Source of the DNA: Eledone cirrhosa
Taxonomy: Eukaryota
Assembly (NCBI GenBank): GCA_964016885.1
Contig: OZ024740.1
Coordinates: 320,168,001-320,232,000 of the forward strand
DNA length: 64,000 nucleotides
Reading direction: 5' to 3'
Shown: in pieces, positions 6-53,641 of the stretch
How the letters are laid out: every line of letters begins with the position of its first letter
Numbering within the stretch: the stretch's first letter is position 1
Position numbers and translations under genes: made by a program
The notes under the pieces: model-generated
The model's input: only the letters and a program-made list of their open reading frames with translations
What the model was told of the DNA's origin: nothing
Database searches by the model: none

Positions 6-3000
6 CTACAGGCGCATGATCAGAGTAGGCCCACTCACGCGGGCCATTCTCGCCACATTCACCCACCTTTCAGTAAATGTACTGGGGGGCAGCACTTCTC
101 TCTCCACCCTCACCTTCCTTTCCAAGTGAAACTTGAAGAAGTTGATGAGGGATTGGCCGAAGAGAAAAGTGTCTGTCTTCAGTCCTTTCAACCTGGTCCA
201 CCATGCAACCTCTTTCGCTACTGCCACCAGGCAGAGGAAAATTGCCTGCCCTTCCTGACCAAAAGAAGGCGGCGGGTCAATCTTCACTATGGACTCGGAC
301 GATAGCCGGATCCGTTCTACACGCGACAATAGCTGTTCGACATAACCCCACAAGTCAGCAATGCACGGACACTGGACGAGTGCGTGCAGAACGGTTTCGT
401 CGCTCTGCGCGCATCTCGGGCAGGTTCGTCTGACAGCACTTCCGTGCCTGTAGAGTTTATCCCGAACCGGCAGCGCCCCCCGGTAGCACTGCCAAGCGAG
501 GGATTTCTGGAAGTTATCCATCGTCCCCGGCTCGAAAGTCCTCCGGAACATACTGGTCAGTTCTACTTCGTTGACGCCCAGAGCCTCTCCTAGTACGTCA
601 TCGCACTTGCCCTCCACTAATCCTCTATAGAAATCTTGAGTGGAAGTTCCACTGACCGCATTGCCCACCTTGCAGAGTGCAGTGAGCGCCTGGCAACATT
701 CCAGATGCCAGTCGCCCAGTCTCGGTCTCTTCTTGACCCAGGACTGCAGCTCAGTCAAAGAGATGAGCTGCGGAAAGGCCCGTCTAACAAACGGCGACCA
801 CACCTGTTCACCGTTTAGGCAAAATATCTGGAGATGTCGCAGCCTCAGCGCATGTCTGCGCATCATTAGCCACGGCATGCCCAGCCCTCCACGAAGAGGG
901 TGCTGGCAGCAGATGGACCGCCTCACCAACGGGACCCGTCCCCTCCACAAAAATTTGAAAAGGAGCCGTTCCAAATTGGCGAGGCGTGGACGGGGGCAAG
1001 GCACGACGGTCAGGCGGTAGTAGATGACGGACGCGATGTACGCGTTCGCCACCTCCGCCCGCCCTTTCAGTGATAGCTTTCTCTCAGCCCATTTCTGGGT
1101 GAGGTTGGCTATCCTGCTCGTCACCTCGTCCCAATTCTTATCCACCTGGAGGTCTGGTCCGAACCAAACCCCGAGCAACTTTACCGGTCCGTCTGTCCAG
1201 CGCCCAACGACGCTGTTGGACGGCATGGACTTTCCTCTCCAGGTGCCGAGCTGCAAGCCCACCGACTTTTCCGGGTTAAGTTTTGCTCCCGTCAACCTTT
1301 CATATTCCTCCAAATGGGTGCGGATCACCTCGATTTCCGAGGTGTCCGACACCATCACGGTGATGTCGTCCGCATAAGCGGACGCAGCCTTTCTACGTCC
1401 CGGTTCGAGCGGGATGCCCTGCAACAACTCCAGCTTCCGCAGTAGAGGCTCAAGAGTCAATACGTACAGAAGTGAGGAGAGAGGGCACCCTTGACGGACC
1501 GATCGAGAGATCTGAAACGGTTCCGAGAGGTGGCCATTAACTTTGACCACCGAGCGGATGCCGCTGTACATTGCAGCGATCCAGCTTCTGAAGACGGGGC
1601 CGCAGCCAGCCGCCTCGAGGACAGCCTCCAAGTACCGATGGTCGACCCTATCGAATGCTTTCGATTGATCTAAATTGATCAGAGCCCCACCGAAGCCAGG
1701 TTTGCACCCAACCCTCTCTATGATGTATCGCATGAGGTGGAGGTTGTCGTGTATGGACCTGGTCGGGATTGCGCAAGTTTGCGCCTCCCCAACCAAATCT
1801 TTGACGACAAGCGCCAACCTTTTCGCTAACACCTTGGCCAAAATCTTAAACTCTGTGTTGAGCAGGGTTATGGGCCTGAAATTATCTAGTGTGTCCCTCT
1901 TGTTCTCGTCTTTCCTTATCAGCGTCACTACGCCACGGCTCACAGAACTGGGAATGCTCCCGTTCTGCTGCCAGTTGCAGTAGAGCGCTTCGAGGAGATC
2001 GGAGAACAAGTCTGGCATATTTACGTAAAGCTCGTAGGGCAGACCATCCAAACCGGGTGACTTGCGACTCGAGCAGCCGACAAGGGCGTCCTGAATTTCG
2101 GCTGATGTTATCGGCTCTTCGCAGCGCTCAGCGTCGGCCGTCGAGAGGCGTGGCAAGCCGTCGAGGTAGGGACTGAAGTCCGCCGCCGTCTCCGACTCAC
2201 CCATCCTCCCGAACAATCGAGCAAAGTGCTGGCGAAAGGCCTCACACATCTGCTTGGAATCGCTCAGTTCGTGTCCATCTCGATCCGTCAAAGACCGAAT
2301 TGTGGTTTTATTTCCACGCTGCGTCTCTGCAAAGCGAGCCCATCGGGCAGCTTTGGTTCCCTCGTTCCTCAGAGCACGCGCCTTAGCTCTGACAATGCAA
2401 CCTTCGTGTTTCGCATTGAAGAAATGGTCTAGTGCCATTCTCGCCGCTAGCACGTCTGTTGCAATGCCACTACAAATAGCCTCGTCTAACTTAGCTATCA
2501 GCCCCTCCTCCTTTCTATTTTTCTCTATTGCTACTTCTTTGCTAAATCCTATCGAGGTTGCTCTAATCTCTCTTTTGAGTGCCCCCCACCACCTGTTGTT
2601 GACAACCCCCCCTGTCAACTTTTTCTTAACTAAGTTGTTGACCCGGTCCCTGTAAGCTTTACGTGCCGGAAACGACATGTTTAGCTTCCAGTAGCTAGGT
2701 CCTAACCTACGTGTCTTATCTAGGTCGACCATACAGATCACAAGCTTGTGATCTGAATAGGCAACCGTTTTAAAATGTGGACATCCTACACTATTTCTAT
2801 CTCTTTTCCTAATGAAAATCCTATCTATGTACGATCTAGATGACCCTATGCGATTGGTCCAGGTCCATACTGGCGCATTAGGGAAATCTAGTCGGTACCT
2901 GTCAGACAGTTGAAACTGGCTGATCAGGTACTTGAGGCTTTTGCACCCCCCGCTCCTATCAGATACTCCCACACAATCCCAGCGTGCTTCTAAGATGCCA

Positions 3001-3425
3001 TTCCAATCCCCTATTAACAGTAAAGGGCGAGACGTAAGCAGAAAGTTTTCCAGGCGCCTAAAGAAGTCCGGCCGACCGGCCCCAGTAGGGGCGTAGACGG
3101 CCACCAGTCTAAAGGCACCACCTTCGCTATTGCTCACGTCCAGGACCACCAACTTTCCGTCAGGATCCCGGAAGATTGACCTTACCTCGAGATCCAGACA
3201 TTTCCTAAACAGCACAGCCACTCCACCTCCCATTCCCGGCCGACTAACAGATGCAAAGATCTGATAATCGTCGAAAATCGGCGCCAGTGCGCGTGTGTCG
3301 GAAATTCTGGTCTCGCTGATGGCAATTACATCCATTCCTAGTGACCTGAGGTCGTTGAGCATGTGACCTTGCTTCCAGGGCGACCCCAGGCCACGAACAT
3401 TTAAACTTCCTACTCTTATGGCCAT
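6..3425 (-). CDS. ORF2: APE endonuclease + reverse transcriptase + C-terminal Cys/His zinc finger (1139 aa)
   Basis: APE motifs LNVRG, ETR, VYAP, GDWN, YIDRIF, SDH; RT motifs KSPGLDG, NFRPITLLN, DQSKAFD, RQGCPLS, YADD; CPRC..HALVQC; uninterrupted. Confidence 0.95.
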   Translation of the reverse strand: MAIRVGSLNVRGLGSPWKQGHMLNDLRSLGMDVIAISETRISDTRALAPIFDDYQIFASVSRPGMGGGVAVLFRKCLDLEVRSIFRDPDGKLVVLDVSNSEGGAFRLVAVYAPTGAGRPDFFRRLENFLLTSRPLLLIGDWNGILEARWDCVGVSDRSGGCKSLKYLISQFQLSDRYRLDFPNAPVWTWTNRIGSSRSYIDRIFIRKRDRNSVGCPHFKTVAYSDHKLVICMVDLDKTRRLGPSYWKLNMSFPARKAYRDRVNNLVKKKLTGGVVNNRWWGALKREIRATSIGFSKEVAIEKNRKEEGLIAKLDEAICSGIATDVLAARMALDHFFNAKHEGCIVRAKARALRNEGTKAARWARFAETQRGNKTTIRSLTDRDGHELSDSKQMCEAFRQHFARLFGRMGESETAADFSPYLDGLPRLSTADAERCEEPITSAEIQDALVGCSSRKSPGLDGLPYELYVNMPDLFSDLLEALYCNWQQNGSIPSSVSRGVVTLIRKDENKRDTLDNFRPITLLNTEFKILAKVLAKRLALVVKDLVGEAQTCAIPTRSIHDNLHLMRYIIERVGCKPGFGGALINLDQSKAFDRVDHRYLEAVLEAAGCGPVFRSWIAAMYSGIRSVVKVNGHLSEPFQISRSVRQGCPLSSLLYVLTLEPLLRKLELLQGIPLEPGRRKAASAYADDITVMVSDTSEIEVIRTHLEEYERLTGAKLNPEKSVGLQLGTWRGKSMPSNSVVGRWTDGPVKLLGVWFGPDLQVDKNWDEVTSRIANLTQKWAERKLSLKGRAEVANAYIASVIYYRLTVVPCPRPRLANLERLLFKFLWRGRVPLVRRSICCQHPLRGGLGMPWLMMRRHALRLRHLQIFCLNGEQVWSPFVRRAFPQLISLTELQSWVKKRPRLGDWHLECCQALTALCKVGNAVSGTSTQDFYRGLVEGKCDDVLGEALGVNEVELTSMFRRTFEPGTMDNFQKSLAWQCYRGALPVRDKLYRHGSAVRRTCPRCAQSDETVLHALVQCPCIADLWGYVEQLLSRVERIRLSSESIVKIDPPPSFGQEGQAIFLCLVAVAKEVAWWTRLKGLKTDTFLFGQSLINFFKFHLERKVRVEREVLPPSTFTERWVNVARMARVSGPTLIMRL

Positions 3426-3454
3426 GCTGGCAGGATGAATGGGAGAGGAAAGGT

Positions 3455-5365
3455 TTACTTACCTTCCGGGGTCTTGTGAAGGTCGGGTGGTTCGACCTCC
3501 ATGGTTTGTGGGGTTTCTTTTGGGAACCCCTTTAATAGTCTTGACGTGGGTTTTACGTTCGGGGTTCCCACATCCCGAGGAAAGCTCTTTCGAATTTCTT
3601 TGTATGAAGCGAGCGACATTCGCATCAGAAGCAAATTATCTGGTACGCGAAATGTGCTCGCTTCAAATGTTTCCCCGTCTTTTTCGATGTTTGTGCTTCG
3701 TGCTACATGGGCCATCAATTCCTTGTTGGCCCTTCTGGCAAGCACGAAGTTTTTAATGTTTTGTTGCTCAGGTTTTATTTGTTCGTGTGATTGTGGTGGT
3801 GATAGCTTTGTTAGTGTTGTTTCTATTGTGTCTGCGTTTGTTGTGGGTGGGGTGTCTGTAGTTTCTGATGTTTGTGTGTCTATTTGTTCTTGTGTCTGTT
3901 TAGCTTGTTTGCGTTTGGGGGATTTTGGTGGTTGTGTTGGTGATGCTGTGGGGAAAATGTTTGTGTGGGTGGTGTGTGTATTTTTTTTTGTGGGGGTGTT
4001 TGTGCTTTGTGGATTTCTTTTTTTTTTGTGTTTTGTTTTTTGTATTTTGGGGGACTTTGGTTTTCCCTCATCTTCACTGCTGGAGGATGAGGGGTCTGTG
4101 GCTGTGAGCGTGTTTGTGTCTGAGTGAGTGTTTATGTTCTTGTTCGTGTGTGTATTTTGGGGGGGAGGGGGAATGGGAGAGCTTTCCTCGTTTCCCCCCT
4201 GGGTGTGCAATTTTGGTGGTTCCATTGTTGACGGTGTTGCTGGTGGTCCTTGTCCCGGCGTCGCCAGCAGTGGAATCTTTCGACCCCTTGCGCTTTTCGG
4301 CAGTTGAGGGCAGAAGGCTCGCAAGTGTGTCGTTTCCCCACAAAGGAAACAATGCGGCCTTTTGCCCTCAGTCATTATATGCAACACCCTCCCGTTTTGG
4401 AGGCGGATGTGGTCCGGGATTGTTTTTACGTTTTCGGGTCTGATTTGGAGCAGTATCTCCAGATCAACCCCGGACCAGTCGTCCCTGGCAGTTCTCGTTG
4501 CCTCTACCGGGACTGTATCCGTTCCTTCCACGATTACGCAACCCAGGAGCCACCACATATCAAGTCCTGGTGGAATCCTGGGAATGCGCACACGTGCTAT
4601 TCGTTTTCCCATGTGGGAGGGGTACATTATGACCTTGCTGGTTTTGCAAGGGGTCATTGAATGCTTCACAGCGAGGGCTTCAGACTTGAACAGCACCGAA
4701 ACGGTGCCGTATTGCCTGCCCCTCTCTATGAAGTCTGTGTCCTCTCTGATGTATTTCAGTGCGGCTTCTATGTCAGCTTGGGCGATTATCGCTGCCCTCT
4801 TTGTCTCTACTGAGATGCATCTGAAATGCACCGTTCTTTTTTCCACTGCCTCAATGGCTTCTGCCGGGACAGTTAAGTTTGCCCAGGTCTGCTCTTGATT
4901 TATGATTTTCCAGGCCTGGGCCAACTTTTCCTCTCTGTTGGTTAAGTCGATGCTGTAGCATGGTCTCCTTTTAGCCGCTGCCACAGCAGCGAAAGTGTTC
5001 TTGTTGGTGTTGTCACTGTTGTTGTTCTTGTTGGTGTTGCTGCTGCTATTGCTGTTGTTGTTCTCCCCTGTGTCGTGGTTACCTTCTGTGCTGTTGGCCT
5101 TGTTGGTGCTGCTGCTGTCGCTACTATTCCTCTCTGTGCTGTTCGTTTTGTTGGTGCTCTCGCTATTACCACCTTCTGCGCTGTTCGGCTTGTTGGTGTT
5201 GGTGTTGTCGCTGTTACCACCTTCCGCGCCGCTCGGCCCGTTGGTGCTGGCACTGTCGCTGCTCACATTCGTGCTGGTGGCGCTCCTCGCCTCACCTCTC
5301 CTCTCAACGCTCAAGTCGCCGTTGCACGACAGCAGACCCGCCTCTAGGGGGCGTGGCTCCGCCAT
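3455..5365 (-). CDS. ORF1 gag-like nucleic-acid-binding protein (636 aa)
   Basis: CFLCGETTHLRAFC CCHC knuckle; N/S/T- and K/P/T-rich low-complexity tracts; lies upstream of ORF2. Confidence 0.9.
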   Translation of the reverse strand: MAEPRPLEAGLLSCNGDLSVERRGEARSATSTNVSSDSASTNGPSGAEGGNSDNTNTNKPNSAEGGNSESTNKTNSTERNSSDSSSTNKANSTEGNHDTGENNNSNSSSNTNKNNNSDNTNKNTFAAVAAAKRRPCYSIDLTNREEKLAQAWKIINQEQTWANLTVPAEAIEAVEKRTVHFRCISVETKRAAIIAQADIEAALKYIREDTDFIERGRQYGTVSVLFKSEALAVKHSMTPCKTSKVIMYPSHMGKRIARVRIPRIPPGLDMWWLLGCVIVEGTDTVPVEATRTARDDWSGVDLEILLQIRPENVKTIPDHIRLQNGRVLHIMTEGKRPHCFLCGETTHLRAFCPQLPKSARGRKIPLLATPGQGPPATPSTMEPPKLHTQGGNEESSPIPPPPQNTHTNKNINTHSDTNTLTATDPSSSSSEDEGKPKSPKIQKTKHKKKRNPQSTNTPTKKNTHTTHTNIFPTASPTQPPKSPKRKQAKQTQEQIDTQTSETTDTPPTTNADTIETTLTKLSPPQSHEQIKPEQQNIKNFVLARRANKELMAHVARSTNIEKDGETFEASTFRVPDNLLLMRMSLASYKEIRKSFPRDVGTPNVKPTSRLLKGFPKETPQTMEVEPPDLHKTPEGK

Positions 5366-5577
5366 GTTTTTTTGAGAAAAAAATTATTATTTTTTTTTTC
5401 AAAATAAAGTTCAAATATTTGGGCCAAAAGGCCCAAATATTATGAGTTATTCCTTCACAGGATACAAATTAATGTCTTATAATGCTTCAGCGGTACAAAA
5501 AATAAACAATTCTCTACAATTAATCCTCAAAAATTGCTTACTCACGGAGCTTCAAAAAACGTACATCCACTTTCGTC

Positions 5578-5601
5578 AATAATAATAATAACAACAATAA
5601 T
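5578..5601. repeat. (AAT)n/(AAC) microsatellite joining the head of Tx1 copy A to the tail of copy B
   Basis: aataataataataacaacaataat. Confidence 0.9.
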
Positions 5602-5851
5602 GATTTCTTTATTAACCACAAGGGTTTACATAAAGTAGACATTAAGGACAGTGCAGGACAATACAGGACGGTACAAATGGGCATTTCTGCGTGTAAAAAA
5701 CAAAAACAGAGGATGTAACAAAAAATAACAATGAAAAATTCCCCAATAGGGGGGAGACTTCGGAGGGACATTTGTGGAGAAAGCCCAGTAAAAGGCCACA
5801 ATGACCCTGACCACCAAGGCAAGTGCCCTCTCCCAGTTTTCCACCTTTAAT

Positions 5852-8800
5852 TTACAGATATATACTCAGAGTAGGCCCATTCACTCGGGCCATTCTTGCT
5901 TCTCTCACCCATCTTTCAACAAAATGCTGGGAAGAGAGCACTTCCCTCTCTACTCTGATTTTCCTTTTCAAATGAAATTTGAAAAAGTTAATCAGGGCAT
6001 CACCGAAGAGGTAAGTGCTCGTCTTCAGCCCTTTCAAACGTATCCACCATACTATCTCTTTCGCCATGGCCACCAGACAGATAAAAACTGCCTGCCCTTC
6101 CCGGCTAAAGGAAGAGGGCGGGGCAATCCTCACGATGAACTCAGCTGATAGCTGGATCCGTCCTACACGTGACAGCAGGTGTTCGACATAAACCCACAAG
6201 TCAGCAATGCTCGGACACTGGACGAGTGCGTGCAGGACGGTTTCGTCGCCCTGCGCGCATCTCCGACATGCTCGGCTGACGGCACCTCCATGCCTGTAGA
6301 GTTTATCCCGAACTGGCAAACTCCTCGGTAGCACTGCCAGGCCAGGGATTTCTGGAAGTTGTCCATAGGCCCCGGCCCGAAAGTCCTTCCGAAGATATTG
6401 GCTAGTTGATTTTCGTCGACGCCTAGAATTTCTCCAAGTACGTCGTCGCTCTTCCCCTCCACTAATCCTATATAGAACGCCAAGGTGGAGTTTCCACCGA
6501 TCACATTGCCCGATTGGTCGAGGGCTGTGAGCGCCTGAAGACATTCCAGTCTCCAAGCGCTCCCTCTCGGTCTTCGCTTGACCCAGGACTGCAGCTCCGT
6601 CAAGGAGACGAGCTGGGGAAAGACGTGTCTAGCAAACGGCGTCCACACTTGATCACCGTCGAGGAAGAGGTGGAGATGTCGTAGCCTGAGCGCATGTCTG
6701 CGCATCATCAGCCACGGCATGCCCAGCCCTCTACGTAGCGGGTGTTGACAGCAGATGGACCGCCTGACCATCGGAGCGCGTCCCTTCCACAAAAAGCGAA
6801 AGAGAAAACGCTCCAGCGCAGTCAGGCGGGGCTTAGGACAAGGTACGATGGTCAGGCGGTAATAGATGACGGACGCGATGTACGCGTTAGCCACCTCCGC
6901 TCGACCTTTCAGGGATAGCTTCCTCTCCACCCATTTCTGGGTGAGAGAAGCCACCCTGCTCGTCACCTCGTCCCAGTTTTTAACCGTCTGGAGGTCCGGA
7001 CCGAACCAGACCCCGAGCAATTTAACCGGTCCGTCCAGCGCCCGACGACGCTGTTGGACGGCATGGACCTGCCTCTCCAGGTGCCGAGCTGCAGGCTTAC
7101 TGACTTTTCCTGGTTGATCATTGCTCCTGTCACCGCTTCGTATTCTCTTAGTGTAGTGCCGATCGCCTCGATGTGTTTGGCGTTCGACACCACTACGGTG
7201 ACATCGTCCGCATATGCTGACACGGATCTTCCGCATCCTAGTTCACGCGGGACCCCCCTCAACGTCTCCAGTTTGTGCAGTAATGGCTCGAGAGTCAATA
7301 CGTACAAGAGGGACGAGAGGTGACATCCCTGGCGGACCGAACGCATGATGTTGAACGGTTCCGAAAGGTGACCGTTCACTCTCACCACAGAGCAGATGTC
7401 GCTGTGCATGGCAGCGATCCAGCCTCTGAAGACGGGCCCAAAGCCAGCTGCTCTCAGGACTGCCGCTAGGTAACGATGGTCGACCCTATCGAAAGCTTTC
7501 GACTGATCTAAATTGATCAAGGACCCACCCGTGCCAGGTTCCCTAGCTACCCTCTCTACGATGTATCGCATGAGGTGGATGGATCTGTCGGGAATGGTGC
7601 ATGTCTGCGCCTCTCCCACCAGACCACCAACGACAAGCGCCAACCTCTTTGCTAGCATCTTGGCCAAAATTTTGAACACTGTGTTTAGCCGCTTCTCGGC
7701 TCACAGAGCTGGAAATTCTCCCGTTCTGTTGCCAGTTGCAGTAGACGTCCGCCAAGAGGTCTCCGAACAAGTCTGGCATTTGTACGTAAAGTTCATAGGG
7801 CAGACCATCCAAACCAGGCGACTTACCCCTTGTGCAGCCAGTCATTGCCTCCCGTACTTCAGCGGCTGTTATCGGCTTTTTGCAACACTCCGCCTCAGTG
7901 GGCGAGAGCCGCGGCAGTCCGTCGAGGTAGACACTAAAGTCCATCCCTCGATCCGGCCCGCCGCTGCCCCCGAACAGTTGAGCGAAGTGTCGCTGAAATG
8001 CTTCACACATTTGCCCGGGATCGAGTAGCATGCGCCCGTCGTGGTCCACCAAAGACCGAATCGTGGCTTTGTTGCCACTACGCGCCTCCGCCACTCGGGC
8101 CCATTGAACGGCTTTCCTCCCCTCGTATCTGAGAGCACGCACCCTATCTCTGACAACGCAGTCTTCGTGCTTTGCATTGAAGAATTGGTCAAGAGCCAAT
8201 TTCGCCGCAAGTACGTCGGTCGCGATGCCTTTGCTAAGCGCCTCGTCAATTTTCTAACTAATTCTACCTCTGCTCTATTTTTCTCTATTGCTAAAGCCTT
8301 ACTAAACCTAATGGACTCTATTCTAATTGCTCTTTTCAGAGCAAACCACCACTTGTTGTTGACGATGGCCCCCGTCAACGCCCGCATAACTAGTTCGCTA
8401 ATCCGGTCTCTGTAGGCCTTGCGCGCTGGTAAGGACGCGTTTAGCTTCCAGTAGCCGGGTCCTCGTCTATGAAGCCTATCTAAGTCAAGCCCACAGATCA
8501 CGAATTTGTGGTCCGTGTAGCTGACTATCTTGAATTGTGGACAGCCAATACTAGACCTATGTATTTCCCTACAAAATACTCTATCTATATATGATCTGGA
8601 TGACCCTATGCGATTTGTCCAAGTCCACATTGGCACATTCAGGAAATCCAATCGGTACCTGTCAGACAGTTCAAAACGCCTGAGCAGGTTGGTGAGGCTT
8701 TTGCACCCTCCTCCCCTATCCGCTGATCCCACACAGTCCCAGCGTGCATATAAGATCCCGTTCCAGTCGCCCACTAACACTAAAGAGCGGGACGTTCCAA

Positions 8801-9189
8801 GAAAGGTCTCCAGACGCCGGAAGAAATCAGGCCGCCCTGCTCCTGTCGGGGCATAGACGGCCACTAGCCTGAAAGCTTGCACGTCTCCGCTGGTCACGTC
8901 CAGCACTACCAACTTACCTTCTGGGTCCAGGAAGATGGCCCGTATGGCGAGATCCAAACCTCTCCGAAAAAGCACAGCAACTCCTCCCCCCCGATCCCGG
9001 ACGGCTGGGAGATGCGTACACATCGTAGCCGCCGAAGATCGGTGCGAAGGCCCGTACTTCGGAGATTCTGGTCTCGCTGATGGCCACTACATCTATGTTT
9101 AGTGACCTGAGGTCATTGAGCAAGTGGCCCTGCTTCCATGACGACCCCAAGCCACGCGCATTTATGCTGCCTATTCTGAGTGAGGTCAT
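5852..9189 (-). pseudogene. Disrupted Tx1 ORF2 (APE-RT-zf) of copy B
   Basis: Consecutive ORF fragments collinear with copy A ORF2 (GDWN, YTDH, YADD, CRRC..HALVQC). Confidence 0.9.
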
Positions 9190-9875
9190 GTTGAAATGGA
9201 GTGGAAAAGATGGGAAAGACCACTTACCTTACTTCTCGTAGAGGAAGGATGGTTTCTCCATCCCTTTTCACTTGATCGTCTGGTGAAGGAACCGTTGAAT
9301 CGTCCCTTCGGCTGGGGTCGTCGGTGAGTATATCCGAATATACTCTCCGGTTGAGTGTCCCTCTTAGGTCTCTGAAATCACCAACTGCGTTGGGGAATTT
9401 CCTTTTAATGTTTGTGTATTGCTTCTGTGCTATTCGTACCAGTCTTATGTTCGTTGGTGTTTTGATTGGTGCTGGTATTATGTAGTCGTGCTGTGAAATG
9501 TCTGTGTATTCAATTATGTAAGTCATTAGTTTCTTGTTGTGTGTATTTATTGCTGTGCATTTGTTTTTCTGGGGGTGCGGTGTGGTTCTGATATTTTCTT
9601 GTTGTTGCAGGGTGTATGTGTTTTGTTGTGTTTGCGATGTTGGTGTTTGTGGTGGTGGTGTTGAAGGTGTTGTTGTTGTTGTTGGCGGTGGGGTTGCGCC
9701 GGTGGTGATGGTGGTGCTAGTGTGGGTGGTGATGGTGTTGCTGCTGTAAGTCTCTTTGCAGTAGCCTTTACCCTTTTTTCATTTCTTTCCTCCCTTTTCG
9801 AAGCCACGCGCATTTATGCTGCCTATTCTGAGTGAGGTAATGTTGAAATGGAGTGGAAAAGATGGGAAAGACCAC

Positions 9876-11482
9876 TTACCTTACTTCTCGTAGAGGAAGG
9901 GCGGTTTCTCCATCCTTTTCACTGCTTGTGGCCTCCTCAGGAAGGATGTCCTTATAAATCCTCCTGGAGAGTGTTTGTAGGAAGTCTCCGATGTCTTTGA
10001 GGAATTTTTGTTTTAGTGTCGTGTACGTTTTCTGTGTGATGCGAGTGATTTGTATATGTGGCGGTGGTGTGAACTTTTGGGTTGTTGTGTAGTCTTTTTC
10101 TGTGATGCTGGTGTTGTGGTGGATGTAGTGTAATAATTGGTTGTTGTTCAAATTTAATGCTGTGTAGTGTGTATGGTTTTGGTTGTTTTGTTTGCGTTTG
10201 TTGTGGGTTTGTTTCTGTTTCGCTTTTTGGTGACTTTTGTGGTGTAGGTGATGGTGGTGTTGGGGTTAATGATGGTGATGGTGTTAGTGTTTGTGGTGAT
10301 GGGGTTGGTGATGCTGGTGTGGATGGTGGCATATCTGTCCTAACTTTTTTGTTTGATAATTTATTTGTTTCCCTCTGTATTTTGTTTTTGGAGGGGGAAG
10401 GAAGAGAATTTTTTCTTTTTGGGTTTCTTTTTTTCTTTTTTCCTGATACCGTTTCCCACTCCTCGTCGTCACAATCTGTCTCCAGTTGTGATAGACCGGG
10501 GAGTGGAAAATCCTCCACAGGCGTTAGTTTTGGTTGTGGCGTGGTGGATGGTGTAGGCGCTGGTGCTAGTTCTGAAGCGTTGGGTGGTGGTGGTGTTGGT
10601 TTTGCTACTGTTGCTGGGGTTGTTGCTGTTACAGTTGCTTCTGTTGTTGCTGCTACAGTTGTTGGTGCCATCTCTGCTGCTGGTGGTTTTGATGGTTGAG
10701 TCACTGGGGTGGGTAGGAGAGGTGGCCTCAACCTTTTAGCCTGAGGGCAGAAAGCCCTTAGGTGGGTTCCTTCACCACAAACGACCCACCTAGGCCTTCT
10801 GCCCTCGACAATTACGGTGAGGTGGCTGCCGTCAGTGAGGATCTCCTCAATGCTTTTTTGGTCCGCTTGGATCAGGAGTTCCATCCCAGATCCGGACCAA
10901 TTCTCCTGCTTTTCTTTCGCTATTTCGATTATCTTGGTGTTGGCTTCGATGCTGGCGAGGACGGCAGCTATTAGCCAGGGAATTTCGATGGCCGGTGGAA
11001 CGTGGGTGACCCTGATCTTTACGAGTCTCTGGCCACAATAGCTTGGGACGAGTGTGAAGTCGTCACTTCTTAATGGGGCCATGGAGTGTTCTCTAGCCTC
11101 CTGTGGTGTTTCAAAGAACACGTCCACGGTTCCATACTTCTGCCCACGTCTGATGTGGGGTTTTTTTGCCCACACATGTACCAAAGCTTTTTGGATTTGG
11201 GACTCGGATGCCCGTTCCACTCGGCGCGATTTTATATTAATTGTTCGATAAGACACGCCGATGCTCCATTTTATTAGGTGGGGGGGGGGTGAGGCTAACC
11301 CTGAACCCATCTTTAACAACTGCAGTCATTGGTAATGGCGGGAAATGAATGTCTGCCTGAGACAAATTTAAAATATTGCTACTGCTTATATTTTTATTGT
11401 TGGCAAACGTAGTAATATTTACAATGGTGGTGTCGGTGTGAGGTTTTAGTTTGTGAGAAAGGAGTGACTCTGAGTCAGCCAT
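9876..11482 (-). pseudogene. Frameshifted Tx1 ORF1 of copy B
   Basis: GRRPRWVVCGEGTHLRAFC (degenerate knuckle); RRGQKYGTVDV motif shared with A and C. Confidence 0.85.
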
Positions 11483-11740
11483 GATGCTTCAAAGAAAAGT
11501 TTTTGTTTGATAATTATAAAAGTTTAAATTTTGGGCTCAAGGCCCCAATCTTTTTGGGTGTCCTTTTCAGATAACAATGTAGGTGCACTTATATACAGTT
11601 AACAATAAAATTTTCCATGAATGGCAATTTTGAACAACTGAAAATAACAAACCTTTGCGGAGCTCACGAAGATACGATTTACTACGTAGGTCGCCAATAA
11701 TAATAATAATAATAATAATAATATTAATAATAATAATAAT

Positions 11741-11920
11741 TGTTTCTGCTTTTGGCACAAGGCCAGCAATTATCCAGTACATTACTGGTACTTTATTTTA
11801 TTGACCTCGTAAGGATGAAAGGCAAAGTTAACCTTGGCGGGATTTGAACTCACACCATAAAGAGCCGTAACTCTTTGCTGCAAAGCATGGCGTCCGGCTC
11901 TCTACCGATACTGCCAATCC
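11741..11920 (-). mobile_element. tRNA-headed SINE with Nin/Deu-like core (partial)
   Basis: Minus strand has B-box GAGTTCAAATCCC and core CCTTTCATCCTT..GGTC.ATAAA...AAAGTACCAG; family recurs at least seven times in the window. Confidence 0.75.
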
Positions 11921-11939
11921 AAATAATAATAATAATAAT

Positions 11940-14900
11940 GGTTTCTTTATTGGCCACAAGGGCTGACATCAAGAAAAACATTACAGACGGCACAGGGCGG
12001 CACAGGGCGGTACAGGACGGTACAGGACGGTACGATGTGGGTTTTGTGCGTGTAAAGATTTTTATTATTTATATTATATAAGAAAAGAAAAAAAAGACAT
12101 AGAAACTTATATATAAACAATAAAAATGAAAATTGAAACAATGAAACATTCCCCAATAGGGGGGAAACCTCCGAGGGTTACTCGTGGCGAAAACCACACA
12201 AAAGACCACGGCCACCCTAACCACCAGGGCAAGCGCCCTCTCTCACTTTCCCACTCCTCAGTCTACAGGCGTATATTCAGAGCGGACCAGACTCGCCACT
12301 TTTACCCACCTTTCAACAAACTTACTAGAAGACAGCACTTGCGTCTCCACCCTAATTTTCCTCTTCAAGTGAAACTTGAAACAGTTAATCAGGGATTAGC
12401 CGGAGAGGAAAGTGTCCGTCTTCAACCCTTTCAATCCTGTCCACCACGCAATCTCTTTCGCCATGGCCACCAGGCAAATGAAAACTGCCTGCCCTTCCTC
12501 CTCTTTAAAGGAGGATGGCGGGGCTATCTGCACAATGAACTCAGTCGATAACCGGATCCGTCCTACACACGACAGCAGCTGTTCGACATAGCTCCACAAG
12601 TCAGCAATCCTCGGACACTTAACGAGTGCGTGCAGGACGGTTACGTCGCCCTGCGTGCATCTCGAACAGGCTCGGCTGACAGCACCTCCGTGCCTGTGGA
12701 GCTTATCCCGAACCGGCAACGCTCCCTGGTAACATTGCCAGGTCAGGGATTTCTGGAAGTTGTCCATAGGCCCCGGTCTGAAAGTTCTCTTGAAGAGAGC
12801 GAACAGCTGATCGTCTTCGTCGCTCTTTCCCTCCACTAGCCCTCTATAGAACGCCGAAGCGGATGTTCTACCGATACTAGTGCCCAGCCGGTAGAGGGCG
12901 GTGAGCGCTTGGAGACATTCCAGCTTCCAAGCGCTATCCCTCGGTCTTTTCCTGATCCAGGACTGCAGCTCCGTCAAGAAGACGAGCTGGGGAAAAGCGC
13001 TTCTGGCAAACGGCGACCACACCTGTTCACCGTCAAGGAAGCACCAGAGATGTCGCAGCCTCAGCGCATGTTTGCGCATCATCAGCCACGGCATGCCTAG
13101 TCCTCCACGCAACGGGTGTTGACAGCAAATGGATCGTCTGACCATGGGAGCACGTCCCTTCAACAAAAAGCGGAAGAGAAGGCGCTCCATTTTGGTCAGA
13201 GTTGGGCGGGGGGAAAGGTACGATGGTCAGGCGGTAGCAGATGACGGACGCTATGTACGCATTCGCCACCTCCCCCCGACCTTTCAGAGACAGCCTCCTC
13301 TCGGCCCATTTCTGGGTGAGAGAGGCCAGCCTGCTTGTCACCTCGCTCAAGTTTTTCTCCATCTGGAGGTCCGGACCGAACCAGACCACGAGCAATTTAA
13401 CCGGTTCTTCCGTCCAGCGCCCCACGACGCTGTCGGACGGCATGGACTTGCCTATCCAGGTGCCGAGTTGCAAGCCCACCGACTTTTCCTGGTTTATCTT
13501 TGCTCCTGTCACCGCTTCGTATTCCTTGAGAGCGGTGCCGAGCATCTGGACGTGTTTGGTGCTCGACACCACCACGGTGACGTCGTCGGTGTAAGCTGAC
13601 ACGGATCTCCCGCATCCCAGTTTGCTTTGGACCCCCCCCCCACTCATCGTCTCCAATTTGTGTAGTAACAGCTCTAGGGCCAATACGTACAAGAGGGACG
13701 AGAGGGCGCAACCCTGGCGGACCGAGCGCATGATGCTGAAAGGCTGCGACAGGTGACCATTCACCCTCACAATCGAGCAGATGTCGCTGTGCATCGGAGC
13801 GATCCAGCCCCTAAAAACGGGCTCGAAGCCGGCCGCCTCGTGGACCGCAGCATGGTCGACCCTATCAAAATCTTTAGATTGATCCAAGTTGATCAGGGCC
13901 CCACCCGTGCCAGGTTCCTTAACCACCCTATCTATGATGTATCACATGAGATGGAGGTTATCGTGGATGGATCTGTCCAGGATCGCGCATGTCTGCACCT
14001 CTCCCACCAGATCACCGACGACAAGCACCAATCTCTTTGCTAACACCTTGGCCAAAATCTTAAACTCTGCGTTTAGCAGAGTTATGTGCCTGAAGTTATA
14101 ACGTCCTCCTTGTTCGGGTCTTTTCTCAGCAGCGCCACCGCTTCCCGGCTCACAAAACTGGGAGTGCTCCCGTTCTGCTGCCAGTTGCAGTAGACATCTG
14201 CCAAGAGGTCGCCGAACTAGTCTGGCATATAGCTCGTAGAGCAGACCATCCAAACCTGGCGATTTACCCCTCGTGCAGTCAAACATCGCGCCCCGTATTT
14301 CACCTGCTGTTATCGGCTTTTCGCAGCACTGTGCTGCGGTCGTCGAGAGCCGCGGCAGTCCGTCGAAGTATGCACCGAAGTCCATACTCCGATCTGGCCC
14401 ACCGCCGCACCCGAACAATTGAGCAAAGTGCTGTTGAAAAGCCGCACACATCTGCTCGTGTTTGAGCAACATGCGCCTATTTCGATCAGGCAAAGACCGA
14501 ATTGTGGACTTGTTACCACGTCGTGCCTTCACCACCCGGGCCCATTGAACGGCTTTCGTCCCCTCGTGTCTTAGAGCACGCGCTCTAGCTGACAACGCAG
14601 CCTTCATCCGGACAACCTACACTAGCCTTATCTGTTTCCCTACAGAATACGCTATCTAAATACGATCTGGAAGACCCGATGCGGTTTGCCCATGTCCACA
14701 TTGGCACATTCGGATAATCCAGTCTATACCTGTCAGACAGTTCAAAACCTCTGAGCAGGTTGTTGAGGCTTTTACACCCTCCTGTCCTGTCTACTAGCCC
14801 CACATAATCCCAGCGTGCATCTAAGATACCGTTCCAGTCGCCCACTAACACTAAAGAGCGGGACGTTCCAAGAAAGGTCTCTAGACGTCTGAAGAAATCT

Positions 14901-17462
14901 GGCCGTCCTTCCCCTGTTGGAGCGTAGACGGCTACTAGCCTGAATGCATTGCCTTCACTGCCGGTGACGTCCAGCACCACCGACTTACTTTCTGGGTCCA
15001 GGAAGATGGCCCGTATGGCGAGATCCAAGCCTCTCCGAAAAAGCACGGCAACCCTTCCCCCGATCCTGGACGGCTGGGGGATGCGTATACATCGTAGCCG
15101 CCGAAGATCGGTGCGAAGGCTCGTGCTTCGGAGATTCTGGTCTCGCTGATGGCCACCACATCTATGTTTAGTGACCTGAGGTCGTTGAGCAGGTGACCCT
15201 GCTTCCAAGATGACCCCAGACCACGTACATTTATACTGCCTATTCTAAGTTCGGCCATGTTGGATGAGAAACGGGGTAAGTGAGAAAGGATCACTTACCT
15301 TGATCGTGTGGTGAAGGGACAGTAGAACCGTCCCTTTGGCTGGTCATGGGTGTTTCCAAGAGGATGTAGGTGTATATCCTCTTGGTAACCGACCCTCTGA
15401 AGTCTACAACTGCGTTGGGGAGTTTTTGTTTTAAAACTTTGTAATGTTCTATTGAGATTTCAATGATGTTTATATTTGTCAGGAGAGTTCTTGGTGTTGG
15501 TGGGGTGTAGTAGTTTGTTTGTGATGTCTGTGTGCTGCTTTATGTGTTGTAGGAGTTCTTTATTTGCCATGTTTATGGCTGTGTACTGTTTGGGGGGAGG
15601 GGCGATTTTGTTACTGTTTTTTTGTTGTTGCTGTTGGGTGTGTGGGTTGTGTTGTGTTTGCGATGTTGGTGTTTTTGGTGATGCTGATGGTGGTGGTGTG
15701 GTTGTTGTTGGTGGTGATGCTTGTGGTGGTGATGGTGGTGGTGTTGCTGCAAGTCTCCTTGCAGCCTTTACCCCTCTTTGTTTGCCTCCGCTTTTGGAGG
15801 GTGAAGCTAAGGGTTTTTTTTCTTTTTTGTTTTGTTTTTTGTGGCAGACCATTTGCCTCTGCTCTCCCGCCTCATACTCCGTGTCAGATTCCGTGGTGTC
15901 TGGTAGGGGTATGAGCTCCACTGCTGTTGGTGGTGGTAGTGGAGCCCGCTCTGGCAATTTTGCCGTCGGTGTAGCTATTGCGACTGTTGGTGTTGCCGCC
16001 ACTGCTGTCGCTGCTTTAGTTGTCCGTGGCCTTGGTATGGGTGCCACAGACGTTGCCCTCCTATTCTCTATGGAAGGGTCTTCTGCCTCTGTTGCCTGCC
16101 CTGCTCTTGGTAGCAGCGGATCAGGCGTCGAAAGGAGGGGCGCCCTCTTCTTGGCTGTCTTCTGCGGGCAGAAGGCCCTGGGGTGACCCTTCTGCCCACA
16201 GAGATAGCACTTTGGGCACCTTCCTTCCACGCTTATAGGGAGTTGGAGTCCTTCCTCGAGGTCTATGATGTATAGGATGGCCTCGATGCCGTCGTGGTCT
16301 GTTTGTATTAGCATTTGCATACCTATTCCTGACCAGTTTTCTCTTCCCATTCTCTGTATTTGCAGTATGGAAGTCTCTCCTCGATTCCAGCATGTACAGA
16401 CGCGGCCAGCCAAGGTATGGGCACGTCGAGCGGGGCCTGGGTCACTTTGACCCTCACAATTTTCTGCCCACAGTAGGAGGGCACTAAGACTATCTCCTCA
16501 CTCTTTAGGGTTTCTAAAGAGTGAGACTTCGCCTCTTGGGGAGTGGCGAAAAGTACGTCTACTGTGGCGTACTTTTTGCCTCGGGTGATGTGGGTTTTGC
16601 GCGTCCAGACGCACCCCAAGGCCTTTTGAGTTTGAACCTCCGTGGCTCTCTCCACCCGATGTGACATTTTGCTTACGGTGCGGTAAGTTACCGTGCGCAG
16701 CTGCTGGTCTTCGAAGAAATCGGGTGGAGGTTTCAGGGAAACTCTATTGTTGTTTCTCAACACCATGGCTCTTGCGACTGCCATCTCCTCCTCCGTGACT
16801 AGCACTGTCTCTATATTTCGGGCCACACCTGCGAAAGAAGTGGCCCCTTTTTCAGCGGCACCATTATTGCTGCCGCTACTGCTGCTACTGGTCTTGTTGT
16901 GGGTGCTGTTGCTGTTGCTGCTGCTACAAACGGTGTTGTTGCTGTTATCACTGTTGTAGTTGGTTGTGTTTTTGGTGCCACTGTTGTTGTTGTTTTAGGT
17001 GCAATTTGTATTGTTGCTGTTGGTGTAGTCGTTCTTTATTTTCTTGTTAGTGGTGTTAATATCGTTGTTGCATTTGTTGTCATTTTTTTCTGTTGTCTGT
17101 ATTTTGGTTGTCACTGTTATTGTTGTAGTTGGTGTGGTAATTTTTTAAAAATTAGTGTTCTCAGTATTGTTTTCTTTGATCTCGTTGTTTGTGGTGGTTT
17201 TTGTTGTATGAATTTCTGTAACCCTCCACTCAACTTTTACGCCGTAGTCACACGACAGCAAACATATGGGGGCGTGTCTCAGCCATGTTTTTTTTATATT
17301 TTTTAAAAGTAAAATGTTCAAATATTATCAAATATTTGCCTTCACATGGCAAAGTCCAAGGGCTTATACCCCTTACACAACAAGAAAAATTAAACAACAA
17401 ATAATTATAACAGGTAAATAAAGCGACTTACTGGGAGCGAGCAAAAAGCGTCCGAACAGACC
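11940..17462 (-). mobile_element. Tx1 copy C, full length with internal deletions and frameshifts
   Basis: ORF2 pieces 12263-15258; ORF1 pieces ~15292-17287 (CYLCGQKGHPRAFC); flanked by (AAT)n at 11922-11939 and 17463-17485. Confidence 0.92.
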
Positions 17463-17493
17463 AATAATAATAATAATAATAATAATATATATT

Positions 17494-22007: not shown

Positions 22008-22575
22008 GCTGACCAAGATACACTCATGGAATGACCAAATGAGGTTTATTTTTCAACATAGTCACTGGAAAAAACAATGAAGTTATTAATAATAAGAGTT
22101 GAAATTAATACATGCAAGATTTCACAGCTCTAGCATCACTCCTTCATAGGCTGACCAAGATACTCTCAGGGAATGACCAAATGAGGTTTATTTTTCAACG
22201 TTAGTCCATAGAAAAAACAATGAAGTTATTAATAAGAGGAGATGAAATTAATACATGCAAGATTTCACAGCTCTAGCATCACTCCTTCATAGGCTGACCA
22301 AGATACTCTCATGGAATGACCAAATGAGGTTTATTTTTCAACGTTAGTCAATGGAAAAAAGCAATGAAGCTATTAATAAGAAGAGTTGAAATTGATATAT
22401 GCAAGATTTCACAGCTCTAGCTTCACTCCTTTATAGGCTGACCAAGATACTCTCATGGAATGACCAAATGCGGTTTATTTTTCAACGTTAGTCCATAGAA
22501 AAAACAATGAAGTTATTAATAAGAGGAGATGAAATTAATACATGCAAGATTCCACAGCTCTAGCATCACTCCTTC
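22008..22575. repeat. Minisatellite, four copies of a 142-144 bp unit
   Basis: Units begin GCTGACCAAGATAC at 22008, 22150, 22293 and 22437. Confidence 0.95.
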
Positions 22576-31162: not shown

Positions 31163-31268
<106 letters not shown>

Positions 31269-31435
31269 TAGGTAAATATACACGGGTGTGTATCATTGTG
31301 TATAGAAGATTATATTAATAAGAGGAATTCCAACTTTGTCTGATTTACTCGTTTTATTTACAATCCTTTAAAATATATATATAATGGTATTATAATGAAA
31401 TAGTATGATAGAATATTAAATTCTAAGTGTTAATT

Positions 31436-31472
31436 GAACAAGTACTTTCATGCTTTCGCAATCTTCAGGTTC
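31436..31472 (-). ncRNA. Minimal type I hammerhead ribozyme
   Basis: GAAC-CTGAAGA-tTGC gaaa GCAt-GAAA-GTAC-TT-GTTC; palindromic stem III. Confidence 0.7.
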
Positions 31473-32215
31473 ATGATATGTGGTGACAGTCGAGTTTGCA
31501 ATTTTCAGCTGTAATGAGATGGGTAAATTTCCTACCTTTTATACATTTTATACAGAGAAAAGTGGCTCCAGAATGCAAAGCCCTGTAAACTGTATTTCGA
31601 CCAATCAGTGTGTAGTTTCACTGAATTACTACAGCTGATTGGTTTAAGCGTCACGGCTGGTTGAGCATGCTAACGACCAATAGTCATACCCAACGTATCA
31701 ATTGTTTTGCTTTTTGAAATGATGAAAATAGCATTTTCTATTAATCATCACCATTACACAGCCCAAGTGAAATCAAGAGAAAAATCAAAGAAAAGAATTT
31801 TATTGATAAATTCAAACCCAAGCTAAATGAACAATAATAACGCCTAGGGGTATTACTTCTACTACCACTATGACCACGACCACTAACAACAACAACAACA
31901 ACAACAATAATAATAATAATAAAAGTGATGTTGATGGTGATGATTAATAGAAAATGCTATTTTCATCATTTCAAAAAGCAAAACAATTGATACGTTGGGT
32001 ATGACTATTGGTCGTTAGCATGCTCAACCAGCCGTGACGCTTAAACCAATCAGCTGTAGTAATTCAGTGAAACTACACACTGATTGGTCGAAATACAGTT
32101 TACAGGGCTTTGCATTCTGGAGCCACTTTTCTCTGTATAAAATGTATAAAAGGTAGGAAATTTACCCATCTCATTACAGTTGAAAATTGCAAACTCGACT
32201 GTCACCACATATCAT

Positions 32216-32252
32216 GAACCTGAAGATTGCGAAAGCATGAAAATACTTGTTC
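32216..32252 (+). ncRNA. Minimal hammerhead ribozyme, mirror copy with one substitution in stem III
   Basis: gaacCTGAAGAttgcgaaagcatGAAAatacttgttc. Confidence 0.6.
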
Positions 32253-32363
32253 AATTAACACTTAGAATTTAATATTCTATCATACTATTTCATTATAATA
32301 CCATTATATATATTTTAAAGGATTGTAAATAAAACGAGTAAATCAGACAAAGTTGGAATTCCT

Positions 32364-32456
<93 letters not shown>

Positions 32457-32700: not shown

Positions 32701-33514
32701 AAAAATTATTATTAAAGTTGTTTTCTTAAGGCCCGGTCGCTGGTGATGGTGATGGCGGCGGCGGTAGTGGTGGTGGTGCCAGTTGATGTTGTTGTTGTGT
32801 TGTGTGCGTGTGTGTGTTTTGTTATTTTGAGTTGTTGTTTTTTTTCTTTCTTTTTTTGCCCTTCTTTTTCTTTTTTTTTTTTGTATCTTTTGATGCCGCT
32901 GTTGTTGTTGTTGTTGTAAATGTTCATTTCAGTTCATTCTGAAGCTGTTGTTGCTGTAAACATTAGTGCCGGTGTTGTTGTTGTAGATGTTGGTGTTGAA
33001 ATCTGGTCGTTTGACTGAGTGATGTATATACACACATATACATACATATATATATATATACACATTAAACAGAGAGTTTGACAACAGGTCGATGACTTTA
33101 GTCTAGATAGGGTAATGACATGTTATGGTGGGGAGAGAGTGTAGAAGTTATTGTAGTGGCGGGGGGACAGTGCGATGTATCTAGTTCACTTGACCGTTTT
33201 TTCTTCTATTTTAGTATATTTTAGCAGAGCAATCCTTATTTATATTTTACATTTTACATTTACTTACATCTCAATATAACATGGCTAAAATTCAAACATA
33301 CATACATACATACATACACACATACATACATACATACATACATACATACATACATACATACATACAGGCATACGCACTTACATACAGGCATACATACATA
33401 CATACAAACAGGCACCCATACATACATACATACATACATACATACATACATACATACATACATACATACATACATACATACATACATACATACATACATA
33501 CATACATACATACA

Positions 33515-34121
33515 TGGTGGCTGCCAACTCGTTTTCGAGTACGGCCCCTACTTTATATCCATGTAGGAGAACCCCTACCGATGCACTGAACGAGTGTGAC
33601 TTTTTAGTCCAGCCAGCGATTTGAAAACTCTGGTACAAACACTACACTTTTGACAATTATTGACACATAGTGCTGGGCCCATGGTACCATCTGACGACAA
33701 GTGCAGAGAGATCTCCAGACATAAAGCAATGCCTGTGCCGTGAAGCTTTTATAGTGAGCAAAGGCACTGCACAAAGCCAGTCCCACTCTCTTAATCAAGA
33801 TGATATTTACCAAAAAGAAGAACAAGTCAACATCATTGGATACCATCAGGGTTGCAGGTGTTATATCAGAGTTTTCCTTCTCCTAGAATTCTGCCTTGAC
33901 AAAGGCTAAGGGGTCATCTCTCCCGGTGATTTTGGATGGCCATTGACTCTTAAGAGCTCCTTTGCCCTTTGACAGGTTTTGTTTTTAGTCCTGCAGGATG
34001 TCCAAAGTCACCCTCCTCACCAAGAAACCTTGGTGGGGTTGCCAGTTTAGTCGCCAACGACCCGACCATGAGACAGGTTGTACTGGGATACATGTTACCA
34101 GTAGCACCAACTGGTGACCTG
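33515..34121 (-). mobile_element. ~600-bp non-autonomous RTE-related retroposon, copy 1, with (TGTA)n tail
   Basis: Four near-identical copies; shares CCTTCTCCTAGAA..GCC.TGACAA.GGCTA.GGG with the RTE 5' UTR (~30920-30960) and a 3' end resembling the RTE 3' end at 26792. Confidence 0.85.
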
Positions 34122-34124
34122 ACA

Positions 34125-34505
34125 TATTTACGGGCGACAAGCCTCTCCGTCTGCTACGCCTTCATCCCTCCTCCGCGGTAATCTTTCAACAATCCCGTCC
34201 GCCTCCGCGCGACCAACCCGCAGCCGCCGCCGCCTTCTTCCTCTCTCTCCTCGCCGCCAACCGAAAGAAGGGCAAGGAAAAACGAAACGAACGCAACGAA
34301 ACGGGCGCAAACCGGCCACCCGACCGACGCTCGAACGTCGAGTCCGACGCCAACGCTACAGCCCCGTACCGGTTCACTGCTTCGCGTACAGACGTGCCGC
34401 GTGACCGATCCCGAGTTTTTGGAAAAAAAACAACAAGACGGCCGACAGGCCGACACACACACACGGCCCGACCGACCCGGTCCTCGGAGCCAATCCTTCT
34501 TCCGA
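34125..34505 (-). rRNA. 28S rRNA fragment (non-functional): conserved core entering a GC-rich expansion segment
   Basis: Minus strand TCGGAAGAAGGATTGGCTCCGAGGACCGGGTCGGTCGGGC closely resembles the eukaryotic LSU core TCGGGATAAGGATTGGCTCTAAGGGCTGGGTCGGTCGGGC (recalled, not searched); only CpG-rich non-TE segment in the window; left boundary approximate. Confidence 0.75.
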
Positions 34506-35637
34506 GTATGGCCCTTCCGCGAAAAAAAAAACCATAATAACGACAATAATAATAACAATAATAATAATAATGATAATAATAAAATATATATATACATACA
34601 CACACATACATACACATTATACATATCTATATATACATCCAGTATCGTCCTCAAGTTGCTTGACGTATGTCTTCTTGGGACGACCAGCGTTTCTTGCTCC
34701 ATGAGATGGACTCCATAACAACACATCTTGAGGACGATACTGGATGCACTGCGGAAGAACTGGCAAACGCTATGAGAGATAGAGATAGATTGAGGAAACG
34801 TGTCGTAGAAAGCCGAGCAAGCTCGACCTGATGATGATGATGATGATATATACATATACATACACACAATAACAATTAACAGTGTTGCGATCGAACGTGG
34901 CTCTTTAGCCCAGCCAATGATCTAAAATGTCTTGCACAGAGTTGGCAACCAAAACATTCACTGGGAATAGTCGGCTGTGGTTGGAGTTCATGTACTTTTG
35001 CATGTCGTTTAAGCCCTCCTGCTGATTTACACTCTCTAACACATGCTTGGCAGGCATGATGAGTAGCATCTCCAACAGCAGCCTGGTAGTCAACCACTGG
35101 TCTCACTTTATGACTGCGAAGATGACTTTCGAGTCCAGCTTTGCTGGGGCAGAGTCTCACACAGACGCTGCATGCCAGCGCCATAGGAGGACCTTCGCTG
35201 TCTGGAAATGCAACAGCAATGGCCTTCCTCGCATCCCTCTTTACTTTCTCGTATGCGATTCTTGATGCCTCAAAAGCAACTTTCCCCTCATATACAGTCT
35301 TTCTCCATTTATTACGATCAGCAGAGATGTTAGCGTCTTTCAAAGAGGCTTTCAACGAATCCTTATACCTCTTTATTGGTTTATGTGGCGGTCGTTTTCC
35401 TTTAACTAACTCTCCATAAAAGAGTTGTTTTTTTGTATTCTAGAATCCTTCATCTTGACAAGGGACCACTCCAACGGAGTCTTTGCTTAAGCACAAGAGC
35501 TTCTATACTGTCACACAGAGAGCTTTCCAAAATCTCGACATCACTGATGTTGTCCCTCCAGTGAACGCCATGGATCAGTCTGAGATACATCTGATGGAAA
35601 CGCTGCAATTGTTTAAGGTGGTGTCGATATGTGACCC
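34502..35637 (-). mobile_element. 5'-truncated RTE copy 2 (zinc-finger C-terminus and 3' UTR)
   Basis: ORF 34876-35355 nearly matches the C-terminus of 27110-28216. Confidence 0.9.
34636..34847 (+). mobile_element. Short 3' fragment of another LINE with (GAT)n tail and inverted 5' part
   Basis: Plus strand LEDDTGCTAEELANAMRDR..SRASST*; minus strand GRPKKTYVKQLEDDTG; atatacat on both flanks. Confidence 0.7.
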
Positions 35638-35649
35638 TTGTACAATACA

Positions 35650-36256: not shown

Positions 36257-36329
36257 TACAATACATACATACATACATACATACATACATACATACATAC
36301 ATACATACATACATACATACATACATACA

Positions 36330-36360
<31 letters not shown>

Positions 36361-53575: not shown

Positions 53576-53641
<66 letters not shown>

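Follow-up and report, generated by a model that had tools for sequence, protein, structure and literature searches.

At one point of the 64,000-nt window analysed here (the whole stretch of Eledone cirrhosa DNA, contig OZ024740.1), a Tx1-like retroelement carries its ORF1 tail, spacer and ORF2 start twice, and the two copies are separated by a piece of ORF1 that resembles another subfamily. The question is whether this element captured a foreign ORF1 fragment where it now sits, as the first-pass annotation had proposed, or whether the mixed ORF1 is older than the locus.

Retroelement copies in the window

The window contains five L1/Tx1-type copies, all on the minus strand, with ORF2 sequences that are 65-82% alike (self-BLAST):

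6-5.6 kb, minus strand: copy A
5.6-11.7 kb, minus strand: copy B
11.9-17.5 kb, minus strand: copy C
44.8-50.4 kb, minus strand: copy D
from 59.6 kb, minus strand: copy E

The ORF2 of copy A matches Exo_endo_phos (7e-14), RVT_1 (6e-30) and zf-RVT (1e-8), and its top match among solved structures is L1 ORF2p (7e-57). An APE endonuclease, an RT and a C-terminal zinc motif in ORF2 characterize Tx1/L1-type non-LTR retrotransposons, and all three are present. Copy A also has a separate ORF1, where a zinc knuckle appears as a sub-threshold match only (zf-CCHC_4, E 0.23). The Tx1 label given in the first-pass annotation is provisional and agrees with this anatomy. The exact copy A proteins are absent from the protein collection searched, and among the Atlas protein clusters copy A finds generic RT/APE clusters only. 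Both ORFs of copy A (6-5383, minus strand) are open, with 642 and 1150 codons from stop to stop, and the copy may be young.

Microsatellites border the copies, in keeping with the target-sequence preference of the Tx1 clade. (ATT)n is found at the ends of copy C and of the two parts of copy B, called B1 and the X copy below, and at the 5' end of copy A; (TCTG)n lies at both ends of copy D and (ATCT)n at the 3' end of copy E. Related families in the window thus use different microsatellite targets. The (ATT)n-flanked elements A, B1, C and the X copy lie on one strand, head to tail. Over 6-17480, copy C, a SINE-like repeat (about 11731-11921), B1/X and copy A form a head-to-tail stack with (ATT)n at each meeting point.

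Several other features were seen in the window. The ORF2 of copy C lacks about 370 nt (window 8539-8166 versus 14610-14605), and about 24 codons are missing from the RT region of the X copy (7696-7688). Two more 3' fragments of the same retroelement group lie at 58823-59536 and 39827-40556, one of them adjoining the 3' microsatellite of copy E. The window also has a 143-bp unit repeated four times in tandem at 22008-22575, with the repeats 92% alike; four copies of a repeat of about 600-750 bp with 90-97% identity, one of them inverted (33359-36360, 52107-54553); and an inverted pair of about 580 bp (89%) at 31176-32454.

Structure of the B1/X locus

The features of the locus, all on the minus strand, are as follows:

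11696..11740, minus strand: (ATT)n microsatellite at the B1 5' end, target-type sequence
9801..11695, minus strand: B1, the 5' part of a B-type Tx1-like element (5'UTR, ORF1, tail, spacer and 12 ORF2 codons, with the ATG changed to ATT), ending at the local join
9801..9923, minus strand: upstream copy of the shared ORF1 tail, spacer and ORF2 start, part of B1 (self-BLAST)
9801..9803, minus strand: junction 1, apparently local; 3-nt microhomology (CTT in sense) joining B1 at ORF2 codon ~12 to the middle of X ORF1
9271..9803, minus strand: 3' part of the subfamily X ORF1 (C-like, 74% to copy C), native to the downstream element
9270..9272, minus strand: junction 2, the family-level seam, with a shared AG at 9272-9271; the C-like side ends at the donor position and the B side follows GCAG
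9228..9270, minus strand: second (B-type) ORF1 tail, 43 nt, in frame with X ORF1, ending in DQ-VKRDGETILPLREVR-stop
9222..9230, minus strand: donor-like motif AAG^GTAAGT containing the ORF1 stop; the B1 equivalent is at 9874-9882
5852..9189, minus strand: ORF2 of the downstream X copy (APE endonuclease, RT, zf-RVT), recovered by tblastn as 6 pieces with 5 breaks; domains read from the intact copy A
5577..5625, minus strand: 3' end of the X copy, AATAAA and (ATT)n tail, adjoining the 5' end of copy A
15293..15301, minus strand: donor AAG^GTAAGT of copy C, the reference for junction 2

The direct duplication of ~123 bp described in the first-pass annotation is present: 9149-9272 and 9801-9923 align over 124 columns at 96.8% (E 2.7e-52, self-BLAST). 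The two repeat copies differ at four places, namely 9187/9839, where the annotated change of ATG to ATT in the upstream copy is seen, 9249/9901, 9250/9902 and a 1-nt indel at 9262. The 528 nt between the repeats (9273-9800) match the ORF1 end of copy C at 358 of 483 positions (74.1%) versus 322 of 482 (66.8%) for the upstream ORF1 of B. The piece is thus C-like, as annotated, but it does not belong to the subfamily of copy C itself. Piece by piece, the ORF2 of the X copy is 64-75% identical to that of copy A.

The C-like part stops where copy C reads CAAG^GTAAGT, and the adjoining B sequence comes after GCAG, as had been noticed before. The AG common to both parents is 9272-9271, which refines the position of a splice-type seam to between 9271 and 9270. 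Each repeat copy carries its own GTAAGT donor-like site (9879 and 9227), so the downstream ORF1 ends in a double tail, C-type and then B-type. Its C-type tail matches that of copy C at 37 of 43 positions (86%). Its B-type tail matches the upstream B tail at 42 of 44 (95.5%) and the C tail at 26 of 43 (60.5%). The homologous ORF1 frames of X, B1 and C agree, and the X frame continues through the seam to the natural stop of B. The C-terminal ends read PSPDDQ-VKRDGETILPLREVR-stop in X, SSEKDGETALPLREVR-stop in B1 and PSPHDQGK-stop in C.

Public contigs at the two junctions

Four public contig sets, picked among 19 runs (the best run contains 0.52 of the window words), were compared with 8850-9850 at 80% likeness: X1 and X2 from one sample of organism A, X5 from organism B and X6 from organism C. 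The results cover 32 of 37,594 pieces, 24 of 1,561 loose-end rows and 15 of 146 joint rows. Contig depth does not give copy number and was not used to count X copies.

Junction 2 is bridged by two of the 32 pieces listed (of 37,594), which come from organisms A and B and differ from the window by about 9%. X5 record 22 (organism B) is 389 nt long and covers 9163-9544 with 34 other letters and 7 gaps (net +7); X2 record 16 (organism A) is 209 nt long and covers 9207-9406 with 17 other letters and 9 gaps (net +9). Both extend more than 60 letters to either side of the junction. A source reading straight into AAG^GTAAGT would need a deletion of about 43-45 nt. All gaps in the bridging contigs are insertions, and the B tail of roughly 43-45 nt is therefore present in them, although rows beyond those listed may include an X form with the donor. 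From the gap arithmetic, record 22 probably also retains the extra G that sets the X ORF1 in frame with the B tail.

The same contigs contain the B-type form. X5 record 23 (B-type, 1535 nt) starts at 9163, like the X-form record 22, and matches 9163-9267 only. Among the rows listed, 24 X1 and 21 X2 contigs have loose ends at 9267 that match the B1 ORF1 (9920-9949) at 29 of 30 positions. X-form and B-type contigs that both start at 9163, together with loose ends at 9267 that carry B1 ORF1, indicate two types of ORF1 with one shared tail and ORF2 start. No loose end at junction 2 occurs among the 24 rows listed of 1,561, which is a weak hint only.

Junction 1 behaves differently. X5 record 24 matches 9546-9803 and then continues for 229 letters unlike the B repeat, and a loose end in 6 X1 contigs begins at the same base, 9803 (among the rows listed). 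Since both break at 9803, junction 1 is absent from those contigs, and the X-type ORF1 has upstream sequence of its own. A piece bridging junction 1 (9801-9803) was not found among the 32 pieces listed. Within 9316-9371, the X-type ORF1 of the window is about 6 nt shorter than that of other contigs; many X5 differences fall here, and the agreement of some X1 and X2 contigs with the window hints at sub-lineages within X.

A probable older hybrid subfamily and a probable local fusion

The locus is best explained by two events of different age (probability about 0.8): an old, family-level formation of a hybrid, X, and a later local fusion of B1 with an X copy. Junction 2 is bridged without deletion in two organisms and the sequence past 9803 is not of B type, so at the family level the arrangement of C-like ORF1, B tail and ORF2 is an older hybrid subfamily, and at least two organisms have contigs of it alongside contigs of B type. 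The marks of a recombinant LINE are seen: the two parents are identifiable on either side of the breakpoint (86% for the C tail, 95.5% for the B tail), and the breakpoint is common to independent copies (at least two contigs, organisms A and B). B1 has a single tail and can be aligned with copy C over its whole length, which makes the B tail native to B1; by parsimony it is X that is recombinant. We read the downstream part, 9803-5580, as a copy of the hybrid subfamily X, the upstream part, 11695-9801, as the 5' part of a B-type element, and the "123-bp duplication" as a tail common to two subfamilies rather than the product of one copying event.

In the old event, the B lineage supplied an ORF1 tail, spacer and ORF2, to which a C-like ORF1 was attached out of register. 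Its breakpoint fell on the shared AG at the C-type donor position, and the resulting hybrid has two tails while its ORF1 stays open. The probable route is an RT switch or a DNA join guided by microhomology, whereas duplication of the tail inside one lineage is improbable. An AGTGA match of 5 nt with a short slip would also yield the seam.

In the local event, B1 and the X copy appear to have fused at the 3-nt microhomology, which would have cost B1 about 3.6 kb and X its 5' part, about 1.7 kb (sizes by analogy with B2 and C). The ages of B1 and X could not be told apart from their ORF breaks, and we therefore infer the route of this join. Insertion of X into the (ATT)n tail of B1, with loss of the intervening DNA at or after integration, has slightly better than even odds; a single RT switch from X RNA to B RNA has clearly lower ones.

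The donor-like site and a possible splice origin of the seam

The position of the old seam raises the possibility that it was made by the spliceosome. A motif (A/G)AG^GT(A/G)GT stands at the ORF1 end of every copy (3462, 9227, 9879, 15298, 48511 and 63290, minus strand); beyond it come a spacer of 27-40 nt that is rich in pyrimidines and then the ORF2 ATG. In a GT-anchored alignment of A, B1, C, D and E, with flanks compared without gaps, 7 of 9 motif columns are invariant versus 0 of 51 flanking columns, two of the seven being the GT anchor and invariant by construction. Relative to the ORF1 frame the motif has two positions, G^GT in A and C but AG^G in B, D and E, and the presence of the stop codon is thus not enough to account for its conservation. 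Seven sites in the 27,102 nt of element sequence match the U1 consensus at 8 or more of 9 positions, and 5 of them are at ORF1 ends. The motif may be a U1 site or a candidate donor, and its conservation across five subfamilies calls for a function. In each of the five copies an intron of 46-59 nt that would fuse ORF1 to ORF2 can be drawn; but every donor has AGs of both phases downstream, and an in-frame acceptor is therefore no evidence for such an intron.

If the site is used, the hybrid family itself could be a splice product. A read-through RNA of a head-to-tail stack would be spliced from the donor at a C-like ORF1 end to an AG 42 nt upstream of the B-type donor, and the resulting RNA, with a C-type 5'UTR and ORF1 followed by B tail, ORF2 and 3' end, would be retrotransposed and found X. 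The seam lies on the donor base with CAG preceding on the B side, the donor motif is conserved in five subfamily copies and two reading phases, and the window offers the required geometry, with a C-type copy upstream of a B-type one on one strand. By our own rough estimate (3 equivalent positions, a viable stretch of 55-100 nt), chance would place the seam there with p about 0.03-0.05. Chimeras of mRNA and L1 that end at donors have been reported (10.1101/2025.02.02.635956).

Against this, the acceptor is poor and purine-rich, with 8 pyrimidines counted in the 19 nt upstream; a higher count precedes 12 of the 16 AGs in 9879-10100, and another AG lies 3 nt upstream. A microhomology of 2 nt suffices without splicing, as the first-pass annotation had allowed, and junction 1 at the same locus has one of 3 nt. 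The C-like parent sequence at the seam is deduced from copy C, which is 74-86% alike. Human SpIREs, moreover, are generally dead ends (PMC5860796). A splice origin of X is therefore possible but doubtful, and the wider picture shares that grade: microsatellite-targeting elements would retain a strong putative 5' splice site at the ORF1 end, stacked copies would be spliced from ORF1 to the next element, and X would be a fossil of spliceosome-driven ORF1 swapping. If this is true, splicing yields a complete hybrid RNA and hence a new propagating family. If the seam reflects microhomology only, the locus combines an ordinary recombinant family with an ordinary local fusion.

Other readings of the locus

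Junction 1 could be an artefact of assembly that joins two unlinked copies. This would be in line with the finding that none of the 32 pieces listed bridges it, and several ORF breaks lie in homopolymers and may be sequencing errors. However, a false join through the shared 124 nt would delete the repeat and not create it, the overlap at the join is only 3 nt, the window contains no N, and the upstream repeat copy has a private change to ATT. An artefact is accordingly quite unlikely.

Slightly less probable still is the double template switch at this locus proposed in the first-pass annotation, in which one B RNA would have been left for, and regained from, a C-like RNA that stopped at the donor as a free 5' exon, with 528 nt captured and 123 nt duplicated. 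The B-insert-B layout and the donor-exact end are real, but junction 2 is bridged in the contigs of other organisms, where the X ORF1 runs upstream of 9803 in non-B sequence. The two repeat copies also differ at 4 places, and their indel types recur in the contigs: record 22 probably has the longer form, and the 24 and 21 B-type contigs end their match at 9267, which is what the shorter form should do. The proposal that copy B captured 528 nt of foreign sequence here is thus not upheld. The source was found to lack GTAAGT at this point and to continue as in B (X5 record 22 and X2 record 16), the outcome that the annotation had itself named as contradicting capture. Its suggestion that ORF1 is swapped between subfamilies stands in so far as the swap is real, but it is an older, family-level event that did not occur at this locus.

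The least probable reading, a 5'-truncated insertion of 528 nt with a 124-bp target-site duplication, draws on the direct repeat that flanks the piece and on a TG/AAAA in the seam region that may resemble an L1-type cut site, but the piece has neither a 3' end nor a tail, these elements occupy microsatellites, the repeat copies show subfamily-type differences, and the seam occurs in other organisms and without the upstream repeat (records 22 and 24).

Searches for relatives outside the window

Several protein searches for relatives gave no matches, and one gave 3 matches, none of them usable. Two candidates (P0001 and P0002) proved to be unrelated repeats, and a third (P0003, a 92-aa ORF1 end) lacks the second tail and is too distant to inform on the seam. 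The seam-side pattern was found at 48 loci in metagenome contigs, of which 0 of 48 continue as donor or B tail; 0 of 49 metagenome loci fetched have a BLAST match to the window, and a phage sequence search gave no match.

Comparison with known systems

Microsatellite-targeting Tx1 elements are known (Kibi, Koshi and crocodilian Tx1) and, like the copies described here, are L1-type APE-RT elements that reside in microsatellites (PMC4494074). The targets in the window, (ATT)n, (TCTG)n and (ATCT)n, are unlike those given for them, and the accessible text of that source makes no mention of a donor at the ORF1 end (PMC4494074). In another cephalopod, Octopus vulgaris, L1-Tx1 families are listed among those recently active (PMC13282606).

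Recombinant LINE families are already known. In mouse, the L1MdTf and L1MdGf families have a breakpoint common to their descendants (PMC3600994). As in X, the 5' part and ORF1 of one family are joined to the ORF2 of another and the breakpoint is inherited, and RT strand switching or an RNA/DNA heteroduplex was proposed for the origin of a new family (PMC3600994). Unlike the mouse L1 cases, as far as the accessible part of the source describes them, the X join is out of register, leaves two tandem ORF1 tails and sits on a conserved donor-like site, and over this stretch of ORF1 its parents share only about 67% identity. Among the papers that the literature search covered, none was found to describe a donor at the Tx1 ORF1 end or a splice-made propagating ORF1 swap.

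If the splice reading holds, X would resemble SpIREs, which are integrated, spliced L1 copies, generally dead ends, whose RNA was spliced at the element's own donor and then retrotransposed (PMC5860796). At junction 2 the putative donor is strong and conserved and the candidate acceptor is weak. In contrast to SpIREs, which are internal deletions of one element, the X seam joins two families, retains both ORFs and occurs in more than one organism (PMC5860796). A SpIRE in the strict sense was rejected, as the two sides of the seam come from different subfamilies.

The mRNA/L1 chimeras offer a second likeness: their 5' partner ends exactly at a donor, an acceptor is present only sometimes, and (trans-)splicing was proposed for them from sequence (10.1101/2025.02.02.635956). 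Their 5' partner is a host exon and they are single insertions, whereas in X the partner is the ORF1 of another retroelement and the product is a subfamily (10.1101/2025.02.02.635956). For the exchange of ORF1 or 5' modules between LINE families, which is frequent, three routes have been proposed, DNA recombination, an RNA/DNA heteroduplex and RT switching; splicing is not among them in the accessible part of that source (PMC3600994), and a seam on a conserved donor makes this fourth route testable.
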